Origin: Nitrospirota bacterium
GTDB taxonomy: Bacteria; Nitrospirota; Thermodesulfovibrionia; Thermodesulfovibrionales; UBA9159
Assembly (NCBI GenBank): GCA_963699545.1
Contig: CAVOUE010000003.1
Coordinates: forward strand, 672,001-736,000
DNA: 64,000 nucleotides
Direction of reading: 5' to 3'
Part shown: piece after piece, positions 9,142 to 26,086 of the stretch
Layout of the letters: each line of letters begins with the position of its first letter
Numbering within the stretch: position 1 is the first letter of the stretch
Position numbers and translations under genes: made by a program
The notes under the pieces: generated by a model
Told to the model about the DNA's origin: nothing
Seen by the model: the letters and a program-made list of their open reading frames with translations, nothing else
Database searches by the model: none

Positions 9142-9144
9142 CCT

Positions 9145-10357
9145 CTATACATTATCCAGCATGTGCCCGAGTTTCTTCTTTTTTGTCCTGAGGTAGATGA
9201 TATTCTTTTCGTGTGGTCTGCTCTCGATGGGCACCCTTTCCACGACCTTGAGGCCGTATCCTTCAAGGCCCACGATCTTCTTGGGATTGTTGGTCATGAG
9301 CCGCATCTTTCTGACCCCGAGATCAACGAGTATCTGCGCCCCGATGCCGTAGTCCCTCAGGTCCGGCTTGAACCCCAGTTTCAGGTTGGCTTCCACCGTG
9401 TCGAGTCCCTTGTCCTGAAGTTCATAGGCCCTCAATTTATTGGCGAGGCCGATACCCCTGCCCTCCTGCCTCATGTAGAGGATGACCCCCTTCTCTTCCT
9501 TATCGATCATCTGCATTGCTTTATGGAGCTGGTCGCCGCAATCGCACCTTCTGGAGCCGAAGACGTCCCCGGTAAGACATTCCGAGTGGACCCTCACGAG
9601 GACGGCCTCCTCCGGCCTTATCTCCCCTTTTACCAGGGCGATATGGACATTGCTGTCCATACCGTTCGTGTACGCGACGGCCCTGAACTCACCATATTCG
9701 GTGGGGAGCTTCACGTCGGAGATCCTCTTCACGAACCGCTCGGTCCGCACCCGGTGATGGATGAGGTCCTTGACGGTAACGATCTTGAGGGCGTGCCTCT
9801 TTGAGAATTCCATCAGCTCAGGGACCCTGGCCATGGTGCCGTCCTCGCTCATTATCTCGCATATGACCCCGGCGGGATATAGCCCGGCGAGCCTTGCAAG
9901 GTCCACCGAGCCCTCGGTCTGGCCGGCCCTCTGGAGCACTCCTCCCGGTTTCGCCCTGAGGGGGAATACGTGTCCCGGCCGCGCAAGGTCATCAGCGCCG
10001 ACCTTCGGGTCGATGGCGGTGAGTATGGTGGTTGCCCGGTCGGCGGCAGAGATACCCGGTGGTAACACCCTTTTTCGCTTCTATCGAGACGGTGAAGGCG
10101 GTGCCGAACTGGGAGGTATTTTCATCGGTCATCATCGACAGCTGCAGTTCCTCTACCCTTTGCGGGGTGAGGGACAGGCAGATGAGTCCCCTGCCGTGCT
10201 TTGCCATGAAATTAATGGCGGACGGGGTCACCTTCTCTGCGGCCATGCAGAGGTCGCCCTCGTTCTCCCGGTCTTCGTCATCCACAAGGATCACCATCTT
10301 CCCCCTTGCGATGTCCTCTATGGCTTCATCTATGGTATTGAACGTATGTTTTTGCAT
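9145..10357 (-). CDS. ribBA: Bifunctional DHBP synthase / GTP cyclohydrolase II (one frameshift near 10057)
   Basis: [37 protein letters not shown] split across ORFs 9992-10357 and 9145-10068. Confidence 0.93.
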
Positions 10358-10420
10358 GCTTGTTCCTCCGAGAATTGTCAGCCAGGATGCCTGGCCTGTT
10401 AAGAGGGCTGTCCCCTCGCA

Positions 10421-11082
10421 TCAGTCTTTTATATATCCCGACTCTGTCAGTGCCTTCATCAAGCTCCTGTCACTGGCCGTCTTGTCTGAGCCGGCCTTCC
10501 GGTCGAGAAAGCGCGCCACATACTTCCCGATGATATCAGCTTCGAGGTTCACCGTGGCTCCCGCGCTCTTGAAGCCGAGGGTGGTGAGCCGGGCGGTATG
10601 AGGGATGATGACCACCGAAAAGGAATCCCTTGAAACGTCCACCACAGTGAGGCTTATGCCGTCCAGCGCGATGGAACCCTTTTCGACAAGAAGGCCGGTG
10701 ACGGTCTCCGGCGCTTCGATGGTCATCGTAAAGGTGTCCCCCGCCGTGTTCTTTGACCTGATCCTTCCCACCGCATCCACATGACCGGTCACAAAATGGC
10801 CGCCCAGCTTCCCGTCAGCCCTGAGGGAAGGCTCAAGGTTCACCCTTTCCCGGGGGGGAGCTGGCCCAGGTTTGTTGAGCGCAGCGTTTCGTCCGACAGG
10901 TCAAAGGTGAGGATGCTGCCCTGCCGGCTCACGACGGTCAGACATGCGCCGTTGATGGCGATGCTGTTTCCCAGGGCTGCGTCCTGCGCGAGGAGAGGGG
11001 CTGAAATGGTGAGGGACGCCCCTGACGGCTTCCTGCCGAGCGATACGACCTCGCCCAGTTCGACGATTATACCGGTGAACAA
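10421..11082 (-). CDS. ribE: Riboflavin synthase alpha chain (frameshift in G-run near 10855)
   Basis: MFTGII start, [35 protein letters not shown]. Confidence 0.92.
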
Positions 11083-11083
11083 C

Positions 11084-11431
11084 CTATTCCTCTATGTCGA
11101 TCTTAAAGTCCAGGGTCTTCTGATAAAGCCCAAGAATGTCCACTGTAGAGGACCAGGAAGTCTGGACCCTGGTGGAGTGTGTTTTCCTGGTCACGACAAT
11201 ATCTTTTGCTTCGATGGGTATTTTCAGGTCCTGGGCAGCCTCAAAGAGCTGGGCCCTTGTCTTTTCAACATTCCCCAGCTCAAGGCGTGCGATCGCCTTT
11301 GCTTCGCTCGCGAAGGCGGAATGTTTGTAGTAGGGGACCCCGAACTCAAAGCCTACGTATCCAGCCAACAGAAGAATGGCGATGGTTAAAAGTGGCTTTA
11401 TGAACCCGTCCCTGCTCCGCAAATGTCTCAT
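11084..11431 (-). CDS. Small membrane-anchored protein (DUF4845-like) downstream of lepB
   Basis: N-terminal hydrophobic helix; ATG overlaps the lepB stop. Confidence 0.55.
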   Translation of the reverse strand: MRHLRSRDGFIKPLLTIAILLLAGYVGFEFGVPYYKHSAFASEAKAIARLELGNVEKTRAQLFEAAQDLKIPIEAKDIVVTRKTHSTRVQTSWSSTVDILGLYQKTLDFKIDIEE

Positions 11432-12042
11432 TTCACCAACCTCCCTATTCTTTCCAGCCTTGGCCAGTGTTTCTTGCTGTCCCATGACCAGTAAATGATG
11501 AGGGCTTCTCCCCTGATCTCTTTCAGATCCACGTACCCCCAGTATCTGCTGTCGTAGCTCTGGTCACGGTTATCCCCCATCATGAATATCTTTTCTTTCG
11601 GGACGATGAAAGGCCCGAAATTGTCCCTGGGCTCTATGCCTCCGGGCTTGAGCGCAGTGTCCGTATGCTGCGCGTAAGGCTCGTTTTGGGCATGGCCGTT
11701 CACAGAGATCACCCTGTTTCTCGATTCTATCACATCCCCTTCCACCGCTATCACCCGCTTGATGAAATCCCTGCTCGGGTCCTCGGGATACTTGAAGACT
11801 ATTATATCACCTCTCGCGGGCTTCCTGAATGCCAGGACCTTCTTGTCGGAAAAGGGGATCGTTGTTCCATAGATGAACTTATTCACGAGGATGTGGTCTC
11901 CTATCTGCAGGGTCGGTATCATGGAGCCCGAAGGGATCTTGAACGCCTGGATAAAATAGGCCCTGATAAAGAGGGCGAGTATGAGGGCGGTGAGAATGGC
12001 TTTTGTATATTCCCAAACTAACTCTTTCTTTGTTTTTTTCAC
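11428..12042 (-). CDS. lepB: Signal peptidase I
   Basis: IPSGSMIPTL, DFIKRVI, MGDNRDQSYDSRYWG; GTG start inferred. Confidence 0.95.
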   Translation of the reverse strand: MKKTKKELVWEYTKAILTALILALFIRAYFIQAFKIPSGSMIPTLQIGDHILVNKFIYGTTIPFSDKKVLAFRKPARGDIIVFKYPEDPSRDFIKRVIAVEGDVIESRNRVISVNGHAQNEPYAQHTDTALKPGGIEPRDNFGPFIVPKEKIFMMGDNRDQSYDSRYWGYVDLKEIRGEALIIYWSWDSKKHWPRLERIGRLVK

Positions 12043-12116
12043 CCTTTGGGTTTCCTCCTCTTCTTCCTGAAGCGTGTAGCGTATAGGAACACAAATACAC
12101 GCTATGCGCTCTACGC

Positions 12117-13905
12117 TTATTTTACTTTCAGCACCGACAGGAATGCCTCCTGGGGGACCTCGATCCTCCCCACCTGCTTCATCCGTTTCTTGCCTTCCTT
12201 CTGCTTCTCGAGCAGCTTTCTCTTTCGCGTGATATCCCCGCCATAACACTTTGCAAGGACGTCTTTTCTCAGGGCCTTGACGCTCTCTCTGGCGATGATC
12301 TTGGACCCGATGGCCGCCTGTATCACCACTTCGTAGAGTTGCCTCGGGATGACCGCCCGCAGTTGTTCGGCGATCTGCCTGCCCTTATAATACGCCTTGT
12401 CCCTGTGAACTATCAAGGAAAGGGCGTCCACCGGCTCTCCGTTCAGCAGGATGTCGAGCCTGGTGAGGTCCGCTTCGATGTATCCGACAAACTCGTAATC
12501 CATTGAGGCATATCCCTTTGACAGGGATTTAAGCCGGTCATAGAAATCCCAGAGGATCTCGTTGAGGGGGATATCATAGACGACCTTGATCCTGTCCTTG
12601 CCGATATAGGTGAATTCCTTCTGGGTCCCCCGCTTTTCCTGGCAGAGGTCAAGGATGGAGCCGATAGAGGACTGGGGCACAAATATCGTCACCTTCACGA
12701 AGGGTTCCTCGATCATAAGAAACCCTGCAGGCAAGGTGGTCGGGTTGTCCACAAAGATGACATTCTCCTTCGCATCCGTGACCCGGTATACTACGGTGGG
12801 CGCAGTGCTGATGAGGGAGAGGCTGAACTCCCGCTCAAGTCTCTCCTTAATGATCTCCATATGGAGAAGCCCGAGGAATCCGCACCTGAAACCGAATCCC
12901 AGGGCAGTGGAGGTCTCCGGCTCATACGAGAAAGAGGAATCGTTAAGGCGCAGTTTTTCGAGGGCATCCTTCAAGCCCTCGTACTGATGGGTTTCTGTAG
13001 GGTAGAGTCCGCTGAACACCATGGGCTTTATCTCTTTGTACCCGGGACAGGGTTCGGCGGCAGGGCGGTCTGCATCGGTGATGGTATCCCCTATCTTGGT
13101 GTCGCTGACGCTCTTTATCCCCCCGATGATATAACCGACCTCTCCGGCGGAAAGCTTTTCAACGGGCTGCATCTTCGGCGAGAAGATCCCCACGTGGGAG
13201 AACGTCAAAGTCCTTTCCCGTGCTCATGATCCGTATCTTCATCCCGGCCCTGACCGTGCCCTCAAAGACCCTCACAAGGACAATGACTCCCTGGTAGTTG
13301 TCAAACCATGAGTCAAAGAGGAGGGCCTTGAGAGGGTTGGCCTCATCTCCCCCGGGCGGCGGGACCTTCCTTACGATAGCCTCCAGGATCTCTCTTGTGC
13401 CTATCCCCTCCTTTGCGCTTGCAAGGATGGCATCCGAACTCTCTATGCCGACAATATCCTCTATCTGTTCTTTGACCCTGTCAGGTTCGGAGGCCGGAAG
13501 GTCGATCTTGTTTATCACGGGGATGATCTCTAGGTTGTTCTCCATGGCAAGATAGGTGTTCGCGACGGTCTGGGCTTCAACGCCCTGGGTGGCGTCCACG
13601 ATAAGAAGCGCGCCTTCGCAAGAGGCAAGGCTCCGGGAAACCTCGTACGAGAAGTCCACGTGGCCCGGGGTGTCGATGAGGTTCAGCACATACTCCTGAC
13701 CGTCCCCGGCGGCGTAGGCGAGCCTGACCGCATGCGCCTTTATGGTGATCCCTCTTTCCCGCTCAAGGTCCATGGAGTCAAGGACCTGCTCCATCATTTC
13801 CCGGGAACTGAGCGCCCCCGTATATTCCAGGAGCCTGTCAGCGAGGGTTGATTTGCCGTGGTCGATATGGGCGATTATCGAAAAATTTCTTATGTTCTTT
13901 GGCAT
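12117..13905 (-). CDS. lepA: Elongation factor 4 LepA (frameshift near 13200)
   Basis: [20 protein letters not shown] and [25 protein letters not shown] in two overlapping ORFs. Confidence 0.96.
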
Positions 13906-14816
13906 GTAAAGACGAGATACGAGGACCCGATAATGCCGGCGTCGTCGCCCAGGGATGAGGGGAGGATCTTCACCCTGTCAAACAACGGTTTGAAGGTGCG
14001 TCGTGAAGCCTCTTTTATCGCCTCCTTAATATAGATGTTCCAGGCCCCGATAAGGCCCCCTGCGAGTATTACGGCCTCCGGACCGAATATGTTTATCATT
14101 GTGGATATTCCTACTCCCAGGTATCTTCCTGCCTCCCGTAACACCTCCCTTGAAAGGTTGTCCCCGTCAAGGGCGGTCCGGTAAATGTCTTCTGGTGTCA
14201 GCTTGTAAATATTTCCCTTGCAGCATTCCCTCAGCGTGCTTTCCGCGCCGTTGTTCAGGGCCGTTATCGCGTAGGCGAGCATCGCCTTTGCGGAAGCATA
14301 CATTTCCAGGCATCCGTTATTTCCGCAGGAGCACTTTTCTCCTGCGGCGTTTATGGTTATGTGCCCTATCTCTGCAGGGACGTTCAGCAGCGAGTTGTTA
14401 TGGATGATACCGCCGCCGATCCCGGTCCCGAGGGTGATAAGGACAAAGCTATTGAATTCCTTCCCTTCTCCCCTCCATTTCTCTCCGAGTGCAGCGACAT
14501 TGGCATCGTTTTCCACGTATACGGGGACATCGAACCTTGTTCTTACTATTTCCGGGATGTTCAGACCTTCAATGGCCGGGAGGTTGGGGGATTCGATCAC
14601 CAGCCCCTTGTCGCTGTCGATGAGCCCTGCCACGCCGAACCCTATCCCCGCCACATCGCCGGTAAAGATGTCGCCGATAGACCTCAGAAGTGATTCCCTG
14701 ATGTTCTCAGAGGAGGGGACCTTGATCTTTCTTGCGATCTCTCCCTCTTCCGACACCAGGGCCACCCTCAGATTCGTACCGCCCAGGTCTATTCCGATTG
14801 CATAGTGTTTTTTCAT
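13890..14816 (-). CDS. ROK family sugar kinase (glucokinase-like)
   Basis: [40 protein letters not shown]. Confidence 0.9.
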
Positions 14817-14864
14817 GCTCTCTCGCAGGATGAATGAAAGAAGATTTATAATTATACCACAAAG

Positions 14865-15719
14865 ATGAAAGCGAGCGTGAGGAGACTTGGGGTCCATACT
14901 TCCATCGCGGGCGGCATCCATCTTTCCCTTGAAAGGGCGGGGGAATTGGGGTGCACTACTGTCCAGCTCTTTTCCCATAATCCGAGGTCCTGGCGGGTTT
15001 CCCCCATACCTGCAGGCGGAATTGCGAGGTTCGGGGAACTGAAAACTGCCCTCGATATCTTTCCTGTTTTCATCCACACATCGTATCTCATCAACCTTGC
15101 CTCGGCAAGACCTGATGTCCTGGAGAGATCAATAGGACTTCTCATCCAGGAAATGGACAGTGCGGATCTGCTGGGTGCTGACTATGTTGTCCTCCACACC
15201 GGCAGCGCGTCACAGGACGATGAAGAGACCGGCCGAAGGAGGGCGGTGGAAGCCCTCAGGGCGGTTTCCCGGAGGGGTCGCTGGAGGGCACGCCTCCTGC
15301 TCGAAAATACCGCAGGGGAAAGAGGCGACATATCATCCCGCATCATTGACCTTGCAGTGATCATGGACAAGACCGGGGGCGTGCTCATAGGGGGGATATG
15401 CCTGGATACCTGTCATGCCTTTCAGGCAGGGTATGAACTGTCAAGGGAAGAAGGCGTGGCCGAGATCGCTGGAGAGATCGAACGTCACATGGGGCTTGAG
15501 AAGGTAAGGCTGATTCATCTCAACGATTCAAAAAGGACATTCAACTCAAGGGTCGACCGGCATGAACATATCGGTTCCGGCGCAATCGGCACCGAGGGAC
15601 TGGGGAAGTTCATGAACCATGCCGCGTTCAGGGACGTCCCTCTGATCCTCGAAACCCCGAAGAAGAGCGACGATGACGACCCGAGGAACCTGAGAATTGT
15701 AAGGGGGCTTTTCAGATAA
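14865..15719 (+). CDS. nfo: Endonuclease IV
   Basis: HTSYLINLAS, LENTAG, CLDTCH, HLNDS, DRHEHIG, ILETP. Confidence 0.95.
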   Translation: MKASVRRLGVHTSIAGGIHLSLERAGELGCTTVQLFSHNPRSWRVSPIPAGGIARFGELKTALDIFPVFIHTSYLINLASARPDVLERSIGLLIQEMDSADLLGADYVVLHTGSASQDDEETGRRRAVEALRAVSRRGRWRARLLLENTAGERGDISSRIIDLAVIMDKTGGVLIGGICLDTCHAFQAGYELSREEGVAEIAGEIERHMGLEKVRLIHLNDSKRTFNSRVDRHEHIGSGAIGTEGLGKFMNHAAFRDVPLILETPKKSDDDDPRNLRIVRGLFR

Positions 15720-16003
15720 GCGTATCATCCTCCGCGCAGTTTGCGGTTCCGCTCCGGTATGAGCGTTACACCCCGCTACTCCTCACTGTGGACATTCCGC
15801 CACAGTAACAATTACCGTTACTACTCCTCGCACGGGGCCACTATTACATCTGTGGTGTTCACTCCGAAAGTCACCGCCAATGGACATGTGCATCGGTGGG
15901 AACTTGCTTTCGAAACAGGCTGGAGCTGAAAATAAGAGCCGCTGTATATTTGGCAGCGATGAGAAGGGAATCAGAAATCAATGCGATGTTGCTTATGCCG
16001 CGT

Positions 16004-16297
16004 TTAAACTGCAATAGCCTCAACCAGTTTCCAGTCATCAGACCTATGTGATGCCTGCCATAGATCGTAATTCCGCTGCATGTTAAGCCAAAGTTCAGGG
16101 GTTGTCTTAAACGCCTTTGATAAACGAAGAGCCATGTCCGGAGTTATAGAAGCATGTTCATTTACAATCTCGGACAAAGTCTTTCTTGACACGCCGAGAA
16201 CTACTGCAAGTCCGGAAACCGTCAGGGACAGGGGCTCCATGTAATGCCTTCTCAAAATGCCGCCCGGATGCGTCGGGCGCCTCAGCCTTTTTCTCAT
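16004..16297 (-). CDS. higA: HigA family antitoxin
   Basis: PTHPGGIL, ITPDMALRL, PELWLNMQRNYDL. Confidence 0.92.
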   Translation of the reverse strand: MRKRLRRPTHPGGILRRHYMEPLSLTVSGLAVVLGVSRKTLSEIVNEHASITPDMALRLSKAFKTTPELWLNMQRNYDLWQASHRSDDWKLVEAIAV

Positions 16298-16309
16298 GTC
16301 TTCACCTCT

Positions 16310-16588
16310 CTAATGGTAATCGATATATTCGACGTCATATGCGTTGCCTTCTTCAAATCTAAAGACAACCCGCCAATTTCCTGAAACTTTTACGGCCCAG
16401 CGACCTTTCATCTTGCCTTTAAGTTGATGAAGATCAGATCCCGGGAATTTCATGTCTTTGATGTCTTCCGCAGCATCAAGCCTGTCGAGAATATCCGCCA
16501 GCTTTTGAGCATGAATCGCCTGGATACCCTTTTTTATCTCGTCATAAAAGAAGTCTTCCAGTCCCTTATGAGAGAAGGACTTAATCAT
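16310..16588 (-). CDS. higB: HigB (RelE-like) toxin
   Basis: MIKSFSHKGLE, LHQLKG, VSGNWRVVFRF, DYH C-terminus. Confidence 0.92.
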   Translation of the reverse strand: MIKSFSHKGLEDFFYDEIKKGIQAIHAQKLADILDRLDAAEDIKDMKFPGSDLHQLKGKMKGRWAVKVSGNWRVVFRFEEGNAYDVEYIDYH

Positions 16589-16599
16589 TTATGTATTAA

Positions 16600-16618
16600 T
16601 GTAACCCGCAGGGTTACA
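16600..16618. promoter_or_regulatory. Probable HigA operator
   Basis: Inverted repeat TGTAACCC-gca-GGGTTACA 12 bp upstream of higB. Confidence 0.6.
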
Positions 16619-16933
16619 AATGTCAAGAAGAAAAAGGTTAAACGCTCAACCTTTCCGATGTTCCATTTGAAGTAGCCGCAGGTCTTAGCCTTTATTTCAA
16701 CCCGAATTATGTTCATTCAAATACATCCAGTACACTGCACTATTTCGATCACAGGCACTCACGGTATTATGGTGAAATGACAGGGGGGTCGGGCATATTC
16801 CCCATTATATATGCGGAGAAAGAAAACATCTGATAGCTGTAAGTTTACGGTCTTCACTTCCTATCCCCACAAACTCGCTCTGGACGCCTTTTAGAAATCC
16901 TTACCTTTATTAATCATGGATAATTGCAATGAA

Positions 16934-16949
16934 AGGCATAAAAATTGCC
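16934..16949 (+). promoter_or_regulatory. Candidate sigma-54 promoter
   Basis: AGGCATAAAAATTGCC fits GG-N10-GC (-24/-12), about 100 bp upstream of the DUF1566 gene. Confidence 0.55.
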
Positions 16950-17045
16950 TATATTTCAAGTGCTTTTCCTATAAGCTGGCTCATGAATAAGGAATGGCAA
17001 ACTAAATTCGTCGCTATATTTCATGAATAAAGGGGAAAGAATGTT

Positions 17046-17702
17046 ATGAAAAGGATAGGCATTTTATTAAGCGCCTTGATCATGGTGTTTGGGCTATCTG
17101 TCTCTGCGTATGCAACGCTCCAGGACATGGGAGATGGGACGATTTATGACACTACCACGCAGTTAAGTTGGCTGAAGAATGCCAATACGGCAGGGTTGAT
17201 GAATTGGAGTTCAGCCGTTGCCTGGGCAGCAGGTTTAAACAGTGGCAGTGGCTTTGCGGGGTTAACAGGCTGGCGGCTTCCGAATACCTCTCAGCCGGAT
17301 ACGAATTGCAGTAATAATTTTGACCCCGGTGGAGGCTTTCAATATTCTGGATATAGTTGCACCGGTAGTGAAATGGGATATTTGTACTACGTTTCACTGG
17401 GCAATGCGGCTGGCGGTCCATTGACCAACACAGGCCCATTTACAGACTTGCAGGCCCCCAACTACTGGTCAGGTACCGCGTATGCGCCGGATCCGACTGT
17501 CAACGCATGGTCCTTCGGTTTCAACGATGGCGTCCAGGGCATCGGCGATCAGAGCGGTGGCTACTACGCCTGGGCAGTGCGTCCCGGGGCAAGAGGATCA
17601 CAAGCATCGCCTGTACCGGCAAGTGGGACGGTTGGCCTGATCGGCCTCGGACTGGCAGGGCTGGTAATAGTCGGGATGAGGCTTAGGAAGGCAACCAGGT
17701 AA
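17046..17702 (+). CDS. Secreted DUF1566 (Lcl C-type-lectin-like) protein with PEP-CTERM/IPTL-like sorting tail; DGR target gene
   Basis: Signal peptide; DMGDGTIYD..QLSW, GWRLP, YWSGT, AWAVRPG; tail VPASGTVGLIGLGLAGLVIVGMRLRKATR. Confidence 0.85.
   Translation: MKRIGILLSALIMVFGLSVSAYATLQDMGDGTIYDTTTQLSWLKNANTAGLMNWSSAVAWAAGLNSGSGFAGLTGWRLPNTSQPDTNCSNNFDPGGGFQYSGYSCTGSEMGYLYYVSLGNAAGGPLTNTGPFTDLQAPNYWSGTAYAPDPTVNAWSFGFNDGVQGIGDQSGGYYAWAVRPGARGSQASPVPASGTVGLIGLGLAGLVIVGMRLRKATR
17448..17594 (+). repeat. DGR variable repeat (VR); similarity to the TR side continues to about 17662
   Basis: Aligns codon by codon to 18369-18512, with mismatches mostly at TR adenines. Confidence 0.85.
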
Positions 17703-17771
17703 CGATACGATAGCGTCCCGGACATGGGCGCTTTGGTGATTTGGATTATTTGGTAATTTGTTTTTTGGGGT

Positions 17772-17791
17772 GCAGGGGGAATTCCCCCTGC
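17772..17791. other. GC-rich perfect palindrome downstream of the target gene
   Basis: GCAGGGGG-AATT-CCCCCTGC. Confidence 0.6.
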
Positions 17792-17827
17792 CTTCGCGTA
17801 ATTTTTTAAAAGGGTTGAGCATCAGCA

Positions 17828-18232
17828 ATGGCCAGGTATGAACATTTGCCGATCGACAAGAAGGCCATGGATGTGGCGGTCCACTTCGAAAAGGTGGTTG
17901 CCGGGTTCAGCCGGTATCACAAATACACCCTGGGCACAGAGCTCCGCAACAAGAGCAGGGATATTCTAGGTCTCATAGTGAAGGCAAACTCCTCTTCTGA
18001 TAAACTGCCTCATCTTCTTGAATTGCGCGAGAAGGTCGAGGAGCTTATAATCCTGATTCGCTTATGCAAGGAGGTGAAGGCATTTAAGAGCTTTGCGGCT
18101 TTTCAGTTTGCCGTCGAAGAGGTAATCTCAGTAAGCAGACAGAACGAGGGATGGCTTAAGAGTGCTGGAACAACAAAAAGGGGGCCGGAATCACCTAAAG
18201 GAAATGAGCGAGATCATTCTTCCTTCAGGTGA
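17828..18232 (+). CDS. avd: DGR accessory variability determinant (Avd, four-helix-bundle protein)
   Basis: YEHLPI.KKAMD...FSRYHKYTLGTELRN...RQNEGWLKS; basic 134-aa protein directly upstream of the TR. Confidence 0.8.
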   Translation: MARYEHLPIDKKAMDVAVHFEKVVAGFSRYHKYTLGTELRNKSRDILGLIVKANSSSDKLPHLLELREKVEELIILIRLCKEVKAFKSFAAFQFAVEEVISVSRQNEGWLKSAGTTKRGPESPKGNERDHSSFR

Positions 18233-18368
18233 GCGTGCCGAGATCGATCATTGTGCGTCTGTCCCGCTTGCGGCTGATGCAAGCATGACTATACAGGACG
18301 GGATACCGTTTGGCGGATTCCCGCCCGGTGGGGCGGAGGAAAAGCTCTGCCAGAAGTGGGCAGACAAT

Positions 18369-18512
18369 ATGCAGGCCAACAACTACTGGTCAGGCACTGA
18401 GTATGCGCCAAATACAACAAACGCGTGGAACTTCAACTTCAACAATGGCAACCAGAACAACAACAATAAGGACACCAACAACTACGCCTGGGCAGTGCGT
18501 CCCGGCGCAAGA
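18369..18512 (+). repeat. DGR template repeat (TR); followed by a copy of the sorting-signal sequence to about 18583
   Basis: AAC-rich; conceptual translation NNYWSGTEYAPNTTNAWNFNFNNGNQNNNNKDTNNYAWAVRPG. Confidence 0.88.
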
Positions 18513-18628
18513 TCACAATCACAAGCATCGCCTGTACCGGCAAGTGGGACGGTTGGCCTGATAGTAATGGGACTGGCAGGGCTTGGGGTAATTATCTATT
18601 CGAGGAAGAAAAGAAGCCTGAATCAAGA

Positions 18629-19183
18629 ATGTCAGAGATAGCGGAGTCAAACAATGACCAGAAAGGAGCGGTCTCGGGAAATACGCAATTCCTGAGGACG
18701 GCCCTCCTGTTTTGTTCTGTAGTTGTCCTTCTTGACCTCTTAGTCTGGTATCTCGGAAGAAAAGAATATCTGGCCTTTCTCGACATCATTACCTCATGGG
18801 TTGTTGCAAACCTCATCCAGTTCTCCGGTCTTCAGGTAATCAGAGACAGCAATACAATTTACCTTGCGCACAGCGAATGGGTGGTCACCACTGAATGCAC
18901 CGCAATTTTCATCATGCTAATCTTCACATCCTTTATCCTGGTGTACCCCTCTTCCGTTAAGGCAAAGGGCCTCGCGCTTCTCACAGGAATACCCTTCATC
19001 TTCGGGGCTAATATACTGAGGCTTTTTATGATGGCGTGGATAGATAAACTCAGGCCTCAGTATACAGAGTATTTTCACCAGTACATCTGGCAGGTGGTCT
19101 TCATCGTGATGGTCATTTTCATGTGGCTCTTGTGGATTGACAAGGTAGTGAACCGTGAAACCAGGGTATCTCTTCCTTCTTAA
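18629..19183 (+). CDS. Exosortase/archaeosortase family transpeptidase (XrtH-like)
   Basis: Multi-pass membrane protein with Cys (TTECTA), Arg (NILRL) and His (FHQYIWQ) triad spacing. Confidence 0.82.
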   Translation: MSEIAESNNDQKGAVSGNTQFLRTALLFCSVVVLLDLLVWYLGRKEYLAFLDIITSWVVANLIQFSGLQVIRDSNTIYLAHSEWVVTTECTAIFIMLIFTSFILVYPSSVKAKGLALLTGIPFIFGANILRLFMMAWIDKLRPQYTEYFHQYIWQVVFIVMVIFMWLLWIDKVVNRETRVSLPS

Positions 19184-19649
19184 ATTCCTGGGATATTCCC
19201 TGGTCCTGTTTGCTTTCGGGCATCAACTGCTGCACGGGTATGCAGCGTTACTGAGGGAGGGAATGGACCTGCTGAACCCAGATTACCATGTTCCAACCGT
19301 ATTGAAGATTTTCTCTACGGCTCCTCAATGACGATAATCGCATTCATTGCCCTTGTGCTTGCGACACCAAGGATCTCCGGCAAAAAAAAAGACAGGTGTT
19401 ATTGGTATCGGTCTTATAGCGTTCTTCCTCACCGACTGGCTGTTTATTCAGTACGTGATTTTCCCGACAGGACAACCACCGGCAAATGAAGACTCTCCAG
19501 CCTTTGAGATGTACCTGTGCGCTAAATGGATCTTGCCGTTCCTCATGTGGATAATTCCATGCTATCCGTTTCTCGGACATTTTTTTGCAACCACCAAGAA
19601 GGTTCCTGAGGATGCGATTACGGACTGCCAGAGCCGCAACGATTCTTAG
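19155..19649 (+). CDS. Exosortase-associated membrane protein (two apparent frameshifts)
   Basis: GTG overlaps the exosortase end; hydrophobic segments and IAFIALVLATP joined across frames to ORF 19347-19649. Confidence 0.5.
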
Positions 19650-19880
19650 TTTGTATCGATAATCTTCGTCTTTCTGACCAATTGATTCTGTGTAGTAGCG
19701 GGGGAAGCTAATACGGGGAAACCTTTCAGTGTAAGAAGGGCATCCGCGTGTGTAGTGCGGTCGTTACGGTAAAAGTTTCTCCACGAACTCTTGATTGACC
19801 ACGTCGGTACTCAACATTTGTTTCCGAAAGAATCTCTCACCTGTGGTAGAAAAGCGACAGTGTTAATAACAGGAAGTAGT

Positions 19881-19948
19881 CTTGCCTCTCATCTCCACCG
19901 ACTAACAACCGTGGTTCAATTAATTGCAACAATGAAGATTTCCGAGAG
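19881..19948. repeat. 68-bp dispersed repeat, copy 1
   Basis: CTTGCCTCTCATCTCCACCGAC...GAAGATTTCCGAGAG; about 57/68 identical to 23204-23271. Confidence 0.75.
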
Positions 19949-20156
19949 AAGTCTGCGGTAATAATGAGTTCGGCGGCTTAGCCGCTGAAAGATTGGTTGT
20001 GGGACCATTTTCCTATTCTCTGTTACTTATTAAGTTGTCTAAATTGTCAACATTCCATATTTGCCAGGTCTCCAAAATAGCATTCCGGAAGTTTGATAAG
20101 AAGAGAGAATTTCACTCTTTCTCATGCCTGTGTTGAGTAAGGACTTCCGACGTTTT

Positions 20157-21635
20157 TTACGTATACGCATAATCATTATACGCCAGCATTTGCAGGATCT
20201 TTGTAATTCTGTAACGCTTGCTAAAGATATTGGGCATTACTTTGATGATGAAAACAGATCGTTCCCAGTTGAGAGAAAGAAGCAGGCTGGCCATACGGAG
20301 CGCAAAAAGCAGACGATAGTGGAACTTTATAGGGTCAGCTTCATTTTGCTGAAGCCAGAAGCCCAGATCCCCGAAATATCTTAGCCTCCGATAGATCGAC
20401 TCAAAAGAGTAGATGCTCTTGTTCACCTTTTCGAATCCCGCCAGGAGCTCTTCGGGAGTCAGATTCGCCGGCTTGAAGACGACATTCTTTGTGTCATACT
20501 TACTCCAGTCTTTATGAATAATGCGTCTTTCCTCTTCAAGCCGTTTAAAGAGCTTGGTCCCCGGAAACGGGGTGAGAATGTTGATGATAGGCTCCATTAT
20601 ATGGGCCTCATCGATAAAGGCGATCAATTCATCAAAGGAGTCCCGCGTGTCGAAGTCATAACCCAAGATAAATGATCCGAGGATTAGCAGGCCGTGTGAA
20701 TGTATTTTTTCGATCGCCTCCAGATAGTTGTGCTTCATATTAACGTTCTTAGACATCGCCGACAAATTCTTTTCTGAAATGGATTCAAAGCCGATAAAAA
20801 CAGAACCGCAGCCGGCCTCTTTCATCAGTTTCATCAGATCCTCATGCCGGGAAAGATTAATTGATGCCTGACAGCCCCATTTGATATTCAGCGGTTTCAA
20901 TGCAGCAAACAACTTGCGGGCATAAGGTATGTCCGCGATGATATTATCATCAGCGAAGAATATCGCTTTCCCCTTGTTTTTATAGCGGCCGCTTGCGAGG
21001 TTCAGGGAATTGATTTCCTCTATGACCCTCTCGACCGGTTTATGCCTGATCGTCTGCCCATCAAAAGCGTGCACGGAACAGAATTCGCAATGAAAGGGAC
21101 AGCCTTTCGTAGTCTGCACGAAATCATTGATATATTTCGTACTATCGAGTTGTGACCTGTCCGGAGGCTGAGCGGCAGCTAAATCTGCAAGCCCATCAGC
21201 CTTATAAGTCCTCTTTAGGGCGCCTCGTTGGGCGTCCTCGACGAGTTTCAGCCAAACCTTCTCAGCCTCACCGATTACAACGGCATCGCAGTAGAGGATC
21301 GCCTCTTCCGGGCACATGGAAGGGTGTATTCCTCCCAACACCGTCCTGGCCCCGCCCTTCCGAAAAGTTTCCGATATCTCATAGGCCCTCTTGGCATGCA
21401 TTGTCCTCACGCTTATGCCGACCAAGTCCGGTTTCCACCCGTAATCAATATCTTCTATGTTTTCGTCGAAAACCCTTAGGGTGTGTCCATGAGGCGTTAA
21501 AGAAATCAGGGCAGGTATTGAAAGCATATAGGAGTAATATTTTCTTGAGCACAGGAATTTGGAAAAGAATTTGTAATCGTAATAACTCTTTTCTTTTTCA
21601 GAGAAATTCTTGGGCATAACAAATGCTATTTTCAC
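20157..21635 (-). CDS. B12-binding radical SAM protein
   Basis: VLGGIHPS, VVIGEAE, KGCPFHCEFC, DDN, GFES. Confidence 0.9.
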   Translation of the reverse strand: MKIAFVMPKNFSEKEKSYYDYKFFSKFLCSRKYYSYMLSIPALISLTPHGHTLRVFDENIEDIDYGWKPDLVGISVRTMHAKRAYEISETFRKGGARTVLGGIHPSMCPEEAILYCDAVVIGEAEKVWLKLVEDAQRGALKRTYKADGLADLAAAQPPDRSQLDSTKYINDFVQTTKGCPFHCEFCSVHAFDGQTIRHKPVERVIEEINSLNLASGRYKNKGKAIFFADDNIIADIPYARKLFAALKPLNIKWGCQASINLSRHEDLMKLMKEAGCGSVFIGFESISEKNLSAMSKNVNMKHNYLEAIEKIHSHGLLILGSFILGYDFDTRDSFDELIAFIDEAHIMEPIINILTPFPGTKLFKRLEEERRIIHKDWSKYDTKNVVFKPANLTPEELLAGFEKVNKSIYSFESIYRRLRYFGDLGFWLQQNEADPIKFHYRLLFALRMASLLLSLNWERSVFIIKVMPNIFSKRYRITKILQMLAYNDYAYT

Positions 21636-21873
21636 AATGAGCTCATCCCCTCATGCAATATTTAGGCTCGCAGCATTATGGAAACACACTCTTAACGTAG
21701 CGCATCTGCGCCATGTCGGTCAAGGAGAATGCCTTTATCTAACCCACCCTCCACTGAAGCCTCGTAAGGACCACCATGATTTACACACACTGCATTGCCA
21801 TTTCTCCTGAAGTCTCTACTAATGAACGCTTTTTCAGGAAGATTGGAATGAACGATTAAAGATAGAAATCTAA

Positions 21874-23139
21874 TCAGAAAGAGCTGCCTGTTTCTTCCCC
21901 GACATCGGGGTCAGAAAAGAGAAACGATTCATGTGCGATAACACAGTTCTTCCCCTCAGACTTCGCTCGATACAGGGACTCATCAGCGAGTTTTATTACA
22001 TCCTTTATAGAACGTGCATCAAATGGAAAACATGCTATACCACCGCTTATGGATACACAACCACGAGGTTGCTTTTCCCTGTGAGGAAAAGGATGGACTG
22101 CGATAGTTTCCCTCAAGCGCTCGGCATAGATTATGGCATCTACTTTCGCAATCCCGGGGAGGATAACGATGAACTCCTCACCTCCGTATCGTGCGGCAAC
22201 CGATCCCTTCCGCGTAGCGCTGAGCACCAAGCTGCCCAGTTCCTTTAGAAGTTCGTCCCCTGCGGCGTGGCCGTTTTTATCGTTATAGTTCTTGAAGTCG
22301 TCAATGTCAAAGAGAAAGATCGAGATTGGGGTGTTGCTTTCCATAATAGACTTCTCCACAAAGACCTGGGCCATCTGGAAGAAATGCCGGCGGTTGCTCA
22401 GACCGGTCAACGGGTCAGTATTCGCATCCCGCTCTGCCTCTCCGATGATTGAACGATTCACAAGCACCATGCCACCTATATCCGCAATAATCTTCATCAA
22501 GTTGTTTTCATTGCCGGTGGGGTTTTTGACCTGTCCGATGGCAATAACACCAAAAAGACGACCACCTATATCAATCGGAGCTGCCATCCAGAGTTGCGAG
22601 CGAGTGTCTTGCTGACTGATATGTCCCTTATCGTCACGCCCTCTGATTTTCACCATGCCGTCCCGGGCCGCCATCCCTACTATTCCTTCTCCCAACGAAT
22701 AAGAGACTTGCTCCTCATCCTTCTGACCGTGAGCACCCAATTTCTTTAGCTGGTTGTCTTCTATGTCAAATCTATAGAGATCAACCGTGTCCGTCAAGAT
22801 AAGATCACGCACGAGATTAAGAATAGTTGAGATAACTTCGTCAGACTTCGCCGTGTTCAACCGATGGATAATGGCTGATACTTTCCCCATGAAGGTCAGA
22901 TAGCGGCGGTTGAGGTTATTGACATTATGTATTTCGTCTCGAAGATTTTGAATCTCTTCGTCCCTGGAAAGTATGTCCTTTTGAAAAGCTTGACGCTGCT
23001 TCTTGTTGTCAGTTTGCTCTTGCTCTCTGCGACTGGTTAGCTTGCCTCTGCGGTAAGCCACAACACCTACGACAACCATACCGATTATTGCCAAAATGAG
23101 CATAATTCCAGACAAATCATACATATTCATGCTCTCCAT
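21874..23139 (-). CDS. Membrane-anchored GAF-GGDEF diguanylate cyclase
   Basis: N-terminal TM helix, coiled coil, DPLTGL, DIDDFK..ND..GH..GD, RYGGEEF. Confidence 0.9.
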   Translation of the reverse strand: MESMNMYDLSGIMLILAIIGMVVVGVVAYRRGKLTSRREQEQTDNKKQRQAFQKDILSRDEEIQNLRDEIHNVNNLNRRYLTFMGKVSAIIHRLNTAKSDEVISTILNLVRDLILTDTVDLYRFDIEDNQLKKLGAHGQKDEEQVSYSLGEGIVGMAARDGMVKIRGRDDKGHISQQDTRSQLWMAAPIDIGGRLFGVIAIGQVKNPTGNENNLMKIIADIGGMVLVNRSIIGEAERDANTDPLTGLSNRRHFFQMAQVFVEKSIMESNTPISIFLFDIDDFKNYNDKNGHAAGDELLKELGSLVLSATRKGSVAARYGGEEFIVILPGIAKVDAIIYAERLRETIAVHPFPHREKQPRGCVSISGGIACFPFDARSIKDVIKLADESLYRAKSEGKNCVIAHESFLFSDPDVGEETGSSF

Positions 23140-23203
23140 CAATAATAAAGTATCACAGTCGATGTCGCTTTCTCAAATATAATATTTTGTATTCTTAACC
23201 AAC

Positions 23204-23271
23204 CTTGCCTCTCATCTCCACCGACAAACAGACGTGATGCAATCAATTTCAGCAGTGAAGATTCCCGTGAG
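23204..23271. repeat. 68-bp dispersed repeat, copy 2
   Basis: CTTGCCTCTCATCTCCACCGAC...GAAGATTCCCGTGAG, followed by the hairpin GCGGCTGAGCCGC. Confidence 0.75.
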
Positions 23272-23295
23272 CACTGCGCGGCTGAGCCGCTTTCG

Positions 23296-24585
23296 TCACG
23301 GAAAACGCTGAAGCGCGAGCGCGTACGCCAGGTTCAGGGGCAAGGTCCAAAACAACCCGACCGGGGAACGGGACAGGCGCCTGTGCACGCTCTTCCATGA
23401 GTAGAATCGCCTGTTCGCGTGCTGATAGCCGGCCAGGAGTTCCTCCGGGCTCATCTGCCTGGGCCGGAAGACCACATCCGCCCGGCCATTGTACTTGCTC
23501 CAGTCGCGCGTAAGGATCCTGCCCTCTGCCTCCAGGCGTTGGTACAGCCTGGTCCCTGGAAATGGCGTCAGGATATTGAACGTCGCGTTCTGTACTCCTG
23601 CCCCCTCGAGGAAGTCGAGCGTTTCGCCGAAGATTGCTTGCGTGTCATTGTCGAAGCCAAAGATGATACCCGCCTGCACCGCTATACCATGGGAATGGAT
23701 CCGCTCTATCGCCCGGGCGTAGTCGGTCACGCGATTGAAGCCTTTTCGGACCTCGTCCACGCTGGCTTGCGAGATCGATTCCAGTCCGACGAACAGCTGC
23801 TTGCAGCCGCTTCGAGCGGCCAACTCCAGGAACTCGTCGTCCTGAGCCGCGTGAATGCTCGCCTGGCTGCTCCACCACTTGCGATGGTGAGCAAGGGCCC
23901 TGAAGAGCGTCTTGGCGTACTCCATGTCGCCCGCGATGTTGTCATCCCACAGGATGATGACCTTGCCCTGGAAGGAGCCGTACTCTTGAGCGACGGCCTC
24001 CACGGGCCGCTTGCGCACGCGGCTCTGATACATGACGGCGAGCGTGCAGAAATCGCAACGGTGCGCACAGCCGCGCGTGGCAAAGAGGACTCCCCCCGTA
24101 TGGTCGCGGCGGTGAAACAGGTCTTTCCGCGACATCGGAGCCTGTTCCAGGGTTGGGGGCTCGGCAGCACAGTAGCGCCGGCCATGCCGTCCAGCCTCAA
24201 AGTCAATGAGGAACTGTGGCCAGTGGGGTTCGGCTTCTCCGACAAAGATCACGTCAGCGTGCGCCTGGGCCTCCTCCGGCATCAACGTCACATGCGGCCC
24301 GCCGAGCACTACCGAGATTCCCTGGTGACGGAACCGGGCCGCCAGGGCATACGCGTGGGGCGCGCTCGGGGTGTGGAAGGTGATTGCCACCAGGTCCGGC
24401 CGCGCCGCGAAATCGACAGGTCTCACCGCCTCATCGATGTGGAGCACGGTCCAATGTGGCGGCGCGAAGGCGGCCAGATACGGCATGGTGATCTGCTGAA
24501 AGTTCAGGACACGGGAACGACGAACTTTCCGGATTTCCGGTGATGAAGCGGTGATCAGAAGGAGGGTTCGCGCTGCAGCGGACAA
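23296..24585 (-). CDS. B12-binding radical SAM protein (GC-rich; start uncertain)
   Basis: VLGGPHVT, VGEAE, RGCAHRCDFC, DDN, GLES. Confidence 0.88.
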   Translation of the reverse strand: MSAAARTLLLITASSPEIRKVRRSRVLNFQQITMPYLAAFAPPHWTVLHIDEAVRPVDFAARPDLVAITFHTPSAPHAYALAARFRHQGISVVLGGPHVTLMPEEAQAHADVIFVGEAEPHWPQFLIDFEAGRHGRRYCAAEPPTLEQAPMSRKDLFHRRDHTGGVLFATRGCAHRCDFCTLAVMYQSRVRKRPVEAVAQEYGSFQGKVIILWDDNIAGDMEYAKTLFRALAHHRKWWSSQASIHAAQDDEFLELAARSGCKQLFVGLESISQASVDEVRKGFNRVTDYARAIERIHSHGIAVQAGIIFGFDNDTQAIFGETLDFLEGAGVQNATFNILTPFPGTRLYQRLEAEGRILTRDWSKYNGRADVVFRPRQMSPEELLAGYQHANRRFYSWKSVHRRLSRSPVGLFWTLPLNLAYALALQRFP

Positions 24586-24597
24586 ACCTGCCCTCTG

Positions 24598-25098
24598 TCA
24601 GAAGGCTTTTTTGGATTTCGGTATCTTGCTTCTCCTGAACTCCCCGCTTCTTCCGCCGCGCTTTTCCATAAGCATGATGTCCGAGATGACCATCTCTTTA
24701 TCCACCGCCTTACACATGTCGTAGACGGTCAAAGCCGCAACTGATACTGCGGTCAACGCCTCCATCTCGACCCCTGTCTGGCCCACGGTTTTTACTGTTG
24801 CCACGATATCCATCCTGCTCTTCTCTTCATGGATGGTCATATCAACGGCCACCGAAGTGATGGAGAGGGGATGACACAGGGGGACAAGCTCCGCCGTCTT
24901 CTTTGCGGCCATGATGCCGGCAATTCTTGCAGCCGACATCACATCCCCCTTGGGGACCGCTCCGTCCTTTATGAGCTTTATCGTCAAGGGCTTCATTGAG
25001 ACGCTGCCCTTTGCCACCGCCTCCCGTTCGGTTGCGGCTTTCTCAGAGACATCTACCATCCTTGCTTTTCCCTGTTTATCGAGGTGTGAAAGCCTCAT
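24598..25098 (-). CDS. moaC: Cyclic pyranopterin monophosphate synthase
   Basis: [29 protein letters not shown]. Confidence 0.96.
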
Positions 25099-25099
25099 C

Positions 25100-26086
25100 T
25101 TATCCCCCGATCCTCGACATTGGTCTCAATGACCCGGGAAATCCCGCCCTGCGGTTGAGGGCATGTCCTTCAGGCTTCACTTCTATCGATAATTTGAGGA
25201 GACGTTCTATCTCTTCATCGGATGATGAACCTCTGAGAGCGGGTTTCAGATCGATCTCGGTTTCAGAGAAGAGGCATGGCCTCAATTTGCCGTCGGCGGT
25301 GATGCGAAGGCGGTTGCAGTCGGCGCAGAAGTGGTGAGTCAATGCGCTGATGAACCCTATGACGCCGGGCGCGTTTTTGATCCGGTAGTACCGCGCAGGA
25401 CCGTCCCTCCTCAGTCTGACCGGCGAGAGGCTCCCCATCTTCTCAACCCGCGCTTTTATCTCATCAGTTGAAATATATCGCTCATCGCTCCACAGGTCTC
25501 CAGCACCTATGGGCATGAATTCGATAAATCTCACCTGGCAGGGGGTATTCAGGGTCAACCCGGCAAATGCCTCGATTTCGTCATCATTCAAGCCTCGTAT
25601 CGGCACCATGTTGATCTTCAGGGGGAGCAATCCGGCTTTTTCCGCTGCCTCTATCCCCCTCATCACCGGAGCGATCTCCCCTCCTCTTGTCATCTCCCTG
25701 TACCGTTCCTGCTTGAGGGAGTCAAGGCTGATATTCACCCTGTTCAGACCCGCGTCTGCCAGCTCCTTTGCATACTTTTCGAGGAGCACTCCGTTGGTGG
25801 TGAGGCTCATGTCCTCGATGCCGGTGATCTTTCTCAGGGAAGCGATGAGATAGGTGACATTCTTCCGCGCGAGGGGCTCTCCCCCGGTGATCCTGATCTT
25901 TCTGACCCCGAGTGCTGCCGCAACTCCCACGACTCTCACGATCTCTTCGTACGTGAGTATCTCTTTGTGCTCCACGGGCATGACACCGCTGTCGGGCATG
26001 CAGTAGACACACCTGAGGTTGCACCTGTCGGTGATGGAGATACGCATGTAGTCGATAACGCGGGAGAAATTATCACGGAGTTTCAT
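25100..26086 (-). CDS. moaA: GTP 3',8-cyclase
   Basis: [24 protein letters not shown]-terminal IGG. Confidence 0.96.

Follow-up and report, generated by a model that had tools for sequence, protein, structure and literature searches.

Diversity-generating retroelements (DGRs) with DUF1566/CLec2 targets, an accessory variability determinant (Avd), adenine mutagenesis and remote targets are established, as set out in parts of the survey of Wu et al. (2018; PMC5758913), where such targets define category 'd', exemplified by the Legionella pneumophila DGR with its surface lipoprotein LdtA, and where supply of avd, template repeat (TR) and reverse transcriptase (RT) in trans is documented. Here, we describe a locus at 17046-19649 of a 64-kb stretch of Nitrospirota DNA (contig CAVOUE010000003.1 of assembly GCA_963699545.1, positions 672,001 to 736,000; this whole stretch is called the window), in which a TR, a variable region (VR) and an avd homologue are combined with an exosortase sorting cassette, and which is probably the relic of a DGR deprived of its RT. 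Coordinates are positions within the window unless a contig or locus prefix (C5:, L0xx:) is given. C5 is another contig of the same assembly (genome G000; 3.04 Mb in 13 contigs, 86.9% complete, 5.1% contamination) and L0xx are loci from other genomes or metagenomes.

The locus resembles the category 'd' DGRs, to the extent that these are characterised in those parts of the survey, by its adenine-specific TR-to-VR differences, its avd gene, its DUF1566/Lcl_C lectin-fold target, a surface-exposed diversified part and multiple or remote targets. It differs from them in that a linker and a tripartite tail come after the VR, the target gene lies next to a dedicated exosortase and its partner, the genome is without RT and the TR is fused to a tail remnant. 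The anchor is also of another kind than that described there for LdtA, which has an N-terminal lipoprotein signal, whereas the window target has a C-terminal sorting tail. The canonical DGRs of other Nitrospirota (L052-L059, L063) show the order target, avd, TR, RT and often a second target; their Avd proteins are 52-63% identical to that of the window, their avd-TR spacers are homologous and their targets belong to Lcl_C. In contrast to the window, these targets stop at ...VRxGQ right after the VR and have no tail, RTs with an RVT_1 domain and a MutS_I extension are present, and tblastn finds no exosortase in the fetched flanks.

Among dedicated sorting enzymes, the signal paired with ArtB is VPXXXP-CTERM; that of XrtH is IPTLxxWG-CTERM, and XrtH is accompanied by an XrtH-associated membrane protein. 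The window system is like them in having a small TIGR04178 enzyme whose Cys, Arg and His are conserved, a neighbouring gene for a substrate with a motif-helix-basic tail, and a small membrane protein. Unlike in these systems, the exosortase, tails and partner pass no named model, the majority tail being VGY[S/N/D]PxW and the minority one PVPA[S/T]GT. The concepts of dedicated sorting systems and of a tripartite signal are presented in parts of a recent preprint (bioRxiv 10.1101/2023.06.07.544157), in which exosortases and archaeosortases are described as cysteine proteases removing such tails, a lipid being then attached in the case of ArtA. DGR parts with DUF1566 targets and dedicated sorting enzymes with adjacent substrates are each established. 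A DGR variable protein with an exosortase-class tail, encoded next to its own exosortase, was not found in print, and a full-text search, the supplementary tables of DGR surveys aside, returned no literature linking DGRs with exosortases, archaeosortases or PEP-CTERM.

Results

Adenine-specific differences between the template repeat and two variable regions

The TR region was aligned with the VR region of the adjacent target gene by BLASTN at E 9e-44, and the repeat is therefore not due to chance. In a three-way alignment, VR1 differs from the TR by 37 substitutions, 28 of which fall on TR adenines (Fisher p = 1e-8, calculated on 50 A in the 139-nt TR core), and by one 3-nt insertion in VR1; with pairwise MAFFT alignment the core showed 35 substitutions, of which 27 concern TR adenines. 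These values are in agreement with a preliminary description of the locus, which had counted about 28 of about 36 substitutions at TR adenines and one 3-nt indel and had noticed a near-invariant block at the end of the repeat; this block, CTACGCCTGGGCAGTGCGTCCCGG, is present. When the whole genome was searched by BLASTN with the TR region, a third copy was revealed on contig C5. This remote VR2 is the 3' part of a paralogue of 200 aa (C5:277052-277654, - strand; Lcl_C E 6.4e-21) and shows 33 substitutions relative to the TR, 25 of them at TR adenines, without any indel (Fisher p = 1e-7). Both VR1 and VR2 carry the adenine-specific signature of mutagenic retrohoming from the window TR.

Mismatches at other bases represent about 24% of the total (9/37 in VR1, 8/33 in VR2) versus 0/23 and 0/27 in L065, a complete relative presented below. 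At two non-A columns VR1 and VR2 are identical and the TR differs. We take these mismatches, together with the 3-nt indel of VR1, as signs of decay. When the 3' ends were compared as initiation of mutagenic homing sites (IMH/IMH*), CCCGGGG was found in both VRs versus CCCGGCG in the TR. The DNA folds 3' of VR1, the TR, VR2 and VR2 of L065 were not more stable than shuffled sequences (z -1.2 to +0.5).

An Avd homologue and a missing reverse transcriptase

The 134-aa protein encoded upstream of the TR matched Pfam bAvd with E 8.9e-10 (39.5 bits, just under the cut-off of 40) and NCBIfam DivGenRetAVD with E 6.7e-11 (42.4 bits, under the cut-off of 80). When Avd was searched in 400 other genomes of the phylum, matches were obtained in 30. 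In 13 fetched loci of the same phylum the homologues share 42-63% identity with the window protein and Lcl_C targets are present, and an RT domain adjoins the avd homologue in 9 of these 13 loci. Judged by its sequence, the 134-aa protein is Avd-like, as first proposed, and this identity is made firmer by the genomic context in relatives, where RT domains and Lcl_C targets lie alongside.

The preliminary description had presented the locus as a DGR cassette. This view holds for the adenine-biased TR and VR, the Avd and the lectin target, but the cassette is not complete: the assembly contains no RT, a point that the description had not raised, and the TR is fused to a tail remnant. A search of the whole 3.04-Mb assembly with PF00078 gave 0 matches; DGR RTs of relatives, serving as a positive control, reached 63.8 and 66.2 bits with this profile, so that an RT would have been seen. 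By tblastn, five related DGR RTs matched the assembly only at the TR/VR segments, apart from spurious antisense matches. Among the latter, weak RT-like matches at 44570-44740 (- strand, E 0.9-5) were rejected, as they lie antisense in a 290-aa open reading frame (ORF) that resembles, by eye, the pseudouridine synthase TruA.

In the full-length RT ORFs of relatives, the reading frame passes through the TR and the RT domain starts about ten residues later. The segment 18252-18506 matches the TR-encoded N-terminus of such an ORF (46.7% over 92 aa, E 2e-4), and the similarity ends at the TR end (18506). The repeat shared with the target gene does not stop where the adenine-mutated part ends but runs on for about 90 nt and takes in a second sorting tail, a continuation likewise absent from the preliminary description, with a direct repeat (17597-17662 and 18518-18583) of 92% identity over 66 nt. 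The tail fused to the TR is a mosaic that is identical to neither other tail, its distal part (IYSRKKR) being closer to the tail of the C5 paralogue. The start codon of the exosortase gene falls within the last codons of this tail, an arrangement close to that on C5, where 17 nt separate target and exosortase. No signal peptide was found in the ORF which contains the TR and the tail copy (18162-18641), and no orphan 5' fragment of a third target gene in the assembly. We read 18506-18641 as the 3' remnant of a former target gene, which would still occupy its native site before the exosortase.

Absence of the RT was also observed at two of the 13 loci with Avd homologues, L060 (G209:C21) and L062 (G162:C10), where avd lies between two Lcl_C targets and no RT domain occurs within 13-15 kb. 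The avd match contains a TGA stop in L062 and spans only 87 of 134 residues in L060, and at a further locus, L055, the RT matches are in fragments. RT loss seems to recur in the phylum, and L060 and L062 may be further RT-less DGR remnants.

A complete DGR coupled to the same exosortase family

The coupling of target and exosortase was found at two other places. In the same genome, C5:276044-277654 (- strand) holds a paralogous cassette of three genes, for an Lcl_C protein whose tail has the motif PVPATGT, for an exosortase sharing 83% identity with that of the window and for an intact 154-aa partner; this cassette has no avd and no TR. The second place, L065, is a locus of a Nitrospirota metagenome-assembled genome (MAG), in which the exosortase is 53% identical to that of the window. 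As listed in Table 1, L065 contains avd, TR and RT together with two targets, the second of which bears a sorting tail and precedes the exosortase and partner. In the VR adjacent to the exosortase, 23 of 23 mismatches are at TR adenines, and in the other VR 27 of 27, with an additional 2-nt indel. The tail motif and the gene order both differ from those of the window. Therefore, in an independent genome, a complete DGR diversifies a tail-bearing substrate of the same exosortase family. The DGR-exosortase coupling is real and is complete in L065, and the synteny to be looked for in other genomes, a tailed Lcl_C VR protein directly upstream of exosortase and partner, exists there as well as, in paralogous form, on C5.

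Two other features of L065 were recorded. About 380 nt from the 5' end of a Mg-chelatase-like gene (ComM/YifB-type, by eye) are duplicated, at 2522-2902 and within 9741-11285 of the locus. The block of about 7 kb between the duplicates comprises the DGR, the exosortase, the partner and a small gene pair on the - strand (8939-9591), and looks like an island inserted into the comM/YifB-like gene. The MutS_I extension, which is rare and is mentioned for three related RTs in the pertinent part of the survey (Wu et al. 2018, PMC5758913), was matched at the C-terminus of the RTs of L056:7943-9778 and L065:5490-7034 with 38.9 and 23.9 bits.

The exosortase, its partner and an adjacent tailed substrate

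The window exosortase scored 58.7 bits against TIGR04178 (cut-off 23) and 47.1 against Pfam Exosortase_EpsH (cut-off 25.7), which bears out the exosortase initially proposed. None of the named exosortase subtypes of NCBIfam (ArtB, XrtH, XrtX, XrtF, XrtA and others) reaches its cut-off: the best one, ArtB, gave 68.0 for the window and 85.5 for C5 versus 150, XrtX 61-64 (window 63.5) versus 170 and XrtH 50-52 (window 50.2) versus 86. Exosortase matches in a protein collection amounted to 76 clusters at E <=1e-5; in the 21 of these that were aligned, C90, R131 and H150 do not vary. Exosortase loci were found in genome contigs (8) and in metagenome contigs (24), and the viral contigs scanned with the exosortase alignment contained no relative.

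Compared with the intact C5 copy, the partner gene of the window shows two frameshifts separated by a stop, a -1 near 19298/19299 and a +1 within the A9 run at 19382-19390. Both are at short homopolymers, sites which may be sequencing errors, and they consequently say little about decay. The partner follows the exosortase in 23 of the 24 metagenome loci, the 24th terminating within the exosortase gene, and also in L064-L066, L101 and L102; it was not detected next to three more distant exosortases (L067-L069, 29-48% identity). It belongs to no Pfam or NCBIfam family. In an Atlas search, unnamed clusters were obtained at 0.93-0.95, with a weak lead to XrtH_assoc at 0.80. Prediction of a complex between exosortase and partner gave scores of 0.18 and 0.11 versus a mark of 0.32.

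The ORF upstream of the exosortase was surveyed in 30 related loci, 7 of which have less than 75 nt of upstream DNA, leaving 23 assessable. A motif-helix-basic tail is present in 19 of these 23. The majority tail reads VGY[S/N/D]PxW-L..T..SL.L.GG.LLR+R, and the minority tail, PVPA[S/T]GT-.GLI.LGLAGL, is that of the three copies of the window genome, L073 and L075, with variants in L068 and L078. Substrates of the Lcl_C family occur in the window, C5, L065, L075, L076 and L084; the others include a Kelch propeller (L083), NHL repeats (L085 and L086), another beta-propeller (L067), a G8 protein (L090) and some proteins without family. Exosortase, partner and adjacent tailed substrate form a conserved cassette. 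Only three ORFs of the window genome carry a tail of the PVPASGT kind, which fits a one-to-one, "dedicated" sorting system.

Neither avd nor a DGR RT was found in the 1.3-10 kb of upstream DNA of L064, L066, L075, L081, L083, L085, L086, L088, L090 and L101. Since most members of the family adjoin non-lectin substrates without DGR parts in reach, linkage of the exosortase cassette to a DGR is facultative. The idea of an exosortase dedicated to the DGR protein is thereby qualified: the link recurs on C5 and in L065, but it is not a constant of the family.

At two of these loci other mobile-element genes were noticed. In L090, an RT of 459 aa (L090:350-1729) lies upstream of a 684-aa repeat protein with a VGYSPMW tail, itself followed by the exosortase; it was considered as a DGR RT and rejected, being of group II intron/maturase type by sequence and in a locus without TR/VR repeat. 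L064 (6565-7172, - strand) is a MAG locus whose exosortase, at 64% identity, is the closest of those borne by genomes; ORFs that look transposase-like by eye are found upstream of this exosortase, and the substrate gene is reduced to a 72-aa remnant with a VGYNPQW tail.

The target lectin and its sorting tail

The target protein begins with a signal-like helix, followed by an Lcl_C (DUF1566) domain (Pfam E 1.8e-18, 67.3 bits versus a cut-off of 34.9), and its C-terminus is ...AWAVRPGARGSQAS-PVPASGT-VGLIGLGLAGLVIVG-MRLRKATR, in which a short motif is followed by a hydrophobic helix and then by a basic cluster. The secreted DUF1566 protein with a VPASGT-hydrophobic-basic tail foreseen in the preliminary description is thus recovered. 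VR1 is internal to the protein, upstream of the tail, and makes up the last ~45 residues of the lectin fold. An AlphaFold2 model built on a 16-row alignment has a mean predicted local distance difference test score of 69.8, with a helix at residues 192-217. The best Foldseek match in the PDB is the C-terminal domain of Legionella Lcl (8q4e_A; template modelling score 0.61 on the target) at E 1.8e-3, which misses the tool's 0.001 line, and the next, weaker matches are snake-venom and mammalian C-type lectin domains. The target has a C-type-lectin-like fold with the VR at the end of the fold, as anticipated for a lectin-like protein diversified upstream of its anchor.

The Pfam PEP-CTERM model gave 13.8 bits on the target (cut-off 20.7). 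For the ORF with the TR-fused tail, NCBIfam PEP_CTERM (13.8 versus 16) and Loki-CTERM (15.0 versus 19.9) were both under cut-off. No curated CTERM model passes on the window target, the C5 target, the TR-fused tail ORF or the 19 upstream ORFs of related loci. In terms of profiles, the DUF1566/Lcl_C and exosortase assignments pass, while the Avd and CTERM models stay under their cut-offs.

The target family comprises 312 proteins at E <=1e-10. The best 120 of these 312 were sorted into tail classes with our own regular expressions: 46 have no tail, 33 a VPEP-type PEP-CTERM, 28 a PVPASGT-like tail, 9 a GYSPxW tail and 4 another helix-plus-basic tail. In 74 of the same 120 proteins the VR was located by pattern, the remaining 46, in which the pattern was unmatched, being dropped. 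Column entropy in these 74 homologues is 2.71 bits at the 27 columns corresponding to TR codons with A in position 1 or 2, versus 0.68 bits in the other 18 columns (Mann-Whitney p = 7e-7). The contrast is kept in each tail class (PVPASGT-like/other n=19, GYSPxW n=9, PEP n=15, no tail n=31). As the homologues are related and the positions line the binding site, it supports, without proving it, a DGR-style diversification of the tail-bearing family members.

A homologue of the target was also seen in a same-family genome (L111, G003:C95, 6906-7499), 67% identical to the C5 copy over 168 aa. Its C-terminus, ...AWAVRPGARSQSTLTPS, has no helix tail, and there is no exosortase, avd or RT within about 6 kb.

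Organisation and surroundings of the locus

The target, avd, AAC-rich repeat, exosortase and partner genes are all on the + strand, as originally listed (Table 1). The hairpin located downstream of the target gene is absent from the output of a simple terminator scan, and a promoter/terminator scan of 16600-20200 gave nothing above shuffled sequence. An Rfam scan of 15500-20300 (E up to 0.1) returned 0 matches and no tRNA was found in 10000-26000.

Table 1. Features of the window locus and of the related locus L065
Feature	Coordinates	Strand	Evidence
Target gene 1, secreted Lcl_C/DUF1566 lectin-like protein, 218 aa	17046..17702	+	Pfam Lcl_C
Variable region VR1, 142 nt	17446..17587	+	alignment to TR
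Tripartite sorting tail: PVPASGT, hydrophobic helix, basic cluster RLRKATR	17610..17702	+	translation
GC-rich hairpin GCAGGGGG-AATT-CCCCCTGC followed by a T-rich stretch, terminator-like	17772..17791	+	DNA fold of 17700-17830
avd, accessory variability determinant, intact, 134 aa	17828..18232	+	Pfam bAvd, NCBIfam DivGenRetAVD, context in relatives
Template repeat TR, 139 nt, 50 A, 15 AAY codons	18367..18505	+	alignments to VR1 and VR2
Linker and sorting-tail copy fused to the TR 3' end	18506..18641	+	direct repeat with tail of target 1
Small exosortase/archaeosortase-family protein, 184 aa	18629..19183	+	TIGR04178
Partner membrane protein, start overlapping the end of the exosortase gene, two frameshifts	19155..19649	+	alignment with C5 copy
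L065 avd	L065:4120-4533		
L065 target 1, Lcl_C	L065:4535-5095		
L065 TR	L065:5418-5555		
L065 RT	L065:5490-7034		RVT_1 63.8 bits plus MutS_I
L065 target 2, Lcl_C and CarboxypepD_reg-like domain, tail ...GGYSPAWLIITLISLTLVGGYLMRKRIASN	L065:7046-7855		
L065 exosortase	L065:7995-8522		
L065 partner	L065:8494-8934		

A HigB-like toxin gene (Pfam E 6.5e-24) and a helix-turn-helix antitoxin gene (HTH_3 E 8.7e-9) are located immediately upstream of the cassette on the - strand (16004-16588). Together with the cassette, with two radical-SAM-like ORFs (20157-21635 and 23296-24585, - strand) and with a GGEEF-motif protein (21874-23142, - strand), these last three assigned by eye, they are part of a stretch (~15715-24630) that is variable relative to the same-genus genomes G001 and G002. 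The flanks matching ~15715 and ~24630 are spaced by about 1.2 kb in G002 and by about 8.7 kb, with unrelated content, in G001. The exosortase has no match in these two genomes, and a DNA search with 12000-25000 left the target-to-partner cassette unmatched in both. Short multi-copy repeats of unassigned kind (15781-15862 and 19783-19962) flank the variable region. They are 76-90% identical to many contigs of the same-family genomes G003, G011 and G014, match nothing in Rfam and are mutually unrelated.

Discussion

We estimate at about 60% the probability that the window element is an RT-less DGR relic joined to a sorting cassette, in which the RT was lost by recombination between TR and VR and which is now frozen; the element is most likely inactive. 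Two systems are combined at the locus. The first is the sorting cassette, made of a secreted tailed binding protein, a small Cys/Arg/His exosortase and a membrane partner of about 150 aa. By analogy with characterised sorting enzymes, the exosortase, probably with its partner, would cut at or near PVPASGT after export, and the lectin would stay anchored with its variable face outward. The second is a DGR of the local Nitrospirota type, with the usual order target, avd, TR, RT and second target, which once rewrote the ligand-binding loops of the lectin at template adenines; its targets were the adjacent gene (VR1) and the C5 paralogue (VR2). The ancestral order is proposed to have been target 1 (VR1), avd, TR, RT, a target with VR and tail, exosortase and partner. 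The order avd, TR, RT, second target is common (L054, L056, L057, L063) and is found with an exosortase in L065.

The RT and the 5' part of the downstream target would have been lost when the TR recombined homologously with the VR of that target, inside the 3' block common to both, giving a TR fused to a sorting tail immediately before the exosortase. Deprived of RT and of the native TR-RT spacer, the element would then be frozen, TR and VRs drifting at non-adenines. Such an event would explain why the RT is missing, why a tail follows the TR, why the junction of tail and exosortase is preserved and why non-adenines drifted later.

Several points weigh against this scenario. The assembly, being only 86.9% complete and in 13 contigs, leaves room for an RT in its missing part. 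As in a working system, avd, the TR adenines and both target ORFs are intact, and the adenine bias, at 76%, is still strong. A mis-join may have occurred, or other cells of the population may keep the RT. As L065 differs from the window in having avd before target 1, the ancestral order is modelled rather than observed. The partner frameshifts may be sequencing errors, and cleavage of the tails by this exosortase family is presumed from homology.

The first alternative is an active DGR whose RT is encoded elsewhere, in an unassembled region, a plasmid or a prophage, and acts in trans on the TR and both VRs, the fusion being tolerated or native. We consider it unlikely, although the incompleteness of the assembly, the intact avd, the 15 AAY codons of the TR and the two open target ORFs speak for it, as do the remote targets and the supply of avd, TR and RT in trans that are documented in parts of the literature (PMC5758913). 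Besides the absence of RT matches in 3.04 Mb, it is opposed by the situation in relatives: in 9 of 13 loci an RT domain is beside avd, in the full-length RT ORFs the frame continues from the TR, where the window has a tail remnant, and the complete relative has no non-adenine mismatch against 24% here. In BPP-1, a spacer between TR and RT gene is needed to prime cDNA synthesis, and this TR-RT spacer is missing in the window.

A second alternative attributes the TR-tail junction to faulty assembly or to a minority haplotype; between 18505 and the exosortase, the true genome would then carry TR and RT along with a third target. The assembly is of metagenome style, TR and VRs have exact shared stretches of ~26 and ~45 nt, and the two homopolymer-type frameshifts in the partner could be consensus errors. 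These stretches are short, however, the junction is deep within a 903-kb contig, the assembly contains neither an orphan RT nor a 5' target fragment, and the tail after the TR is a mosaic distinct from both other tails, so that we regard an artefact as improbable. A third alternative, in which part of the lectin gene was duplicated, the AAC-rich copy diverged, the adenine pattern is coincidental and no retroelement was ever involved, is hardly credible. The duplicate does include the tail, as would be the case after a simple segmental duplication, but the adenine bias is at p ~1e-8 (VR1) and ~1e-7 (VR2), an Avd homologue lies between the copies, canonical DGRs have a homologous avd-TR region, and the variability of the homologues is concentrated on AAY positions (2.71 versus 0.68 bits, p 7e-7, in the 74 of the best 120 of 312).

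Beyond the relic proposed for the window, a broader view may tentatively be put forward, to which we give somewhat less than even chances: a one-to-one sorting system without a description in the literature searched, composed of a small exosortase, an obligatory 150-aa partner and a VGYSPxW or PVPASGT substrate, would have been captured repeatedly by DGRs, giving a covalently anchored hypervariable lectin, and retroelement and cassette would move as well as evolve as one unit. In its boldest form, the window element may still be active by means of an RT that escaped assembly.

In bacteria, nothing comes closer to programmed receptor diversification than the variable proteins of DGRs. The manner of their attachment to the surface is known in very few cases; the one named in the relevant parts of the survey (PMC5758913) is Legionella LdtA with its lipoprotein anchor. 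As the window copy is probably dead, the value of the window itself is lowered, and L065 is the intact example. The window would nevertheless document a way in which a DGR can die, by TR x VR recombination removing the RT, and such a deletion route bears on the interpretation of RT-less TR/VR pairs in genomes. The exosortase subfamily, its partner and its sorting motifs are unnamed by current curated models. Among the best 120 of the 312 proteins of the target family, at least three kinds of sorting tail occur in nature, each with variability focused on the template AAY positions. The locus shows another route of display for DGR products, in which a variable lectin domain is joined to a C-terminal sorting signal and is encoded alongside its own exosortase and partner.

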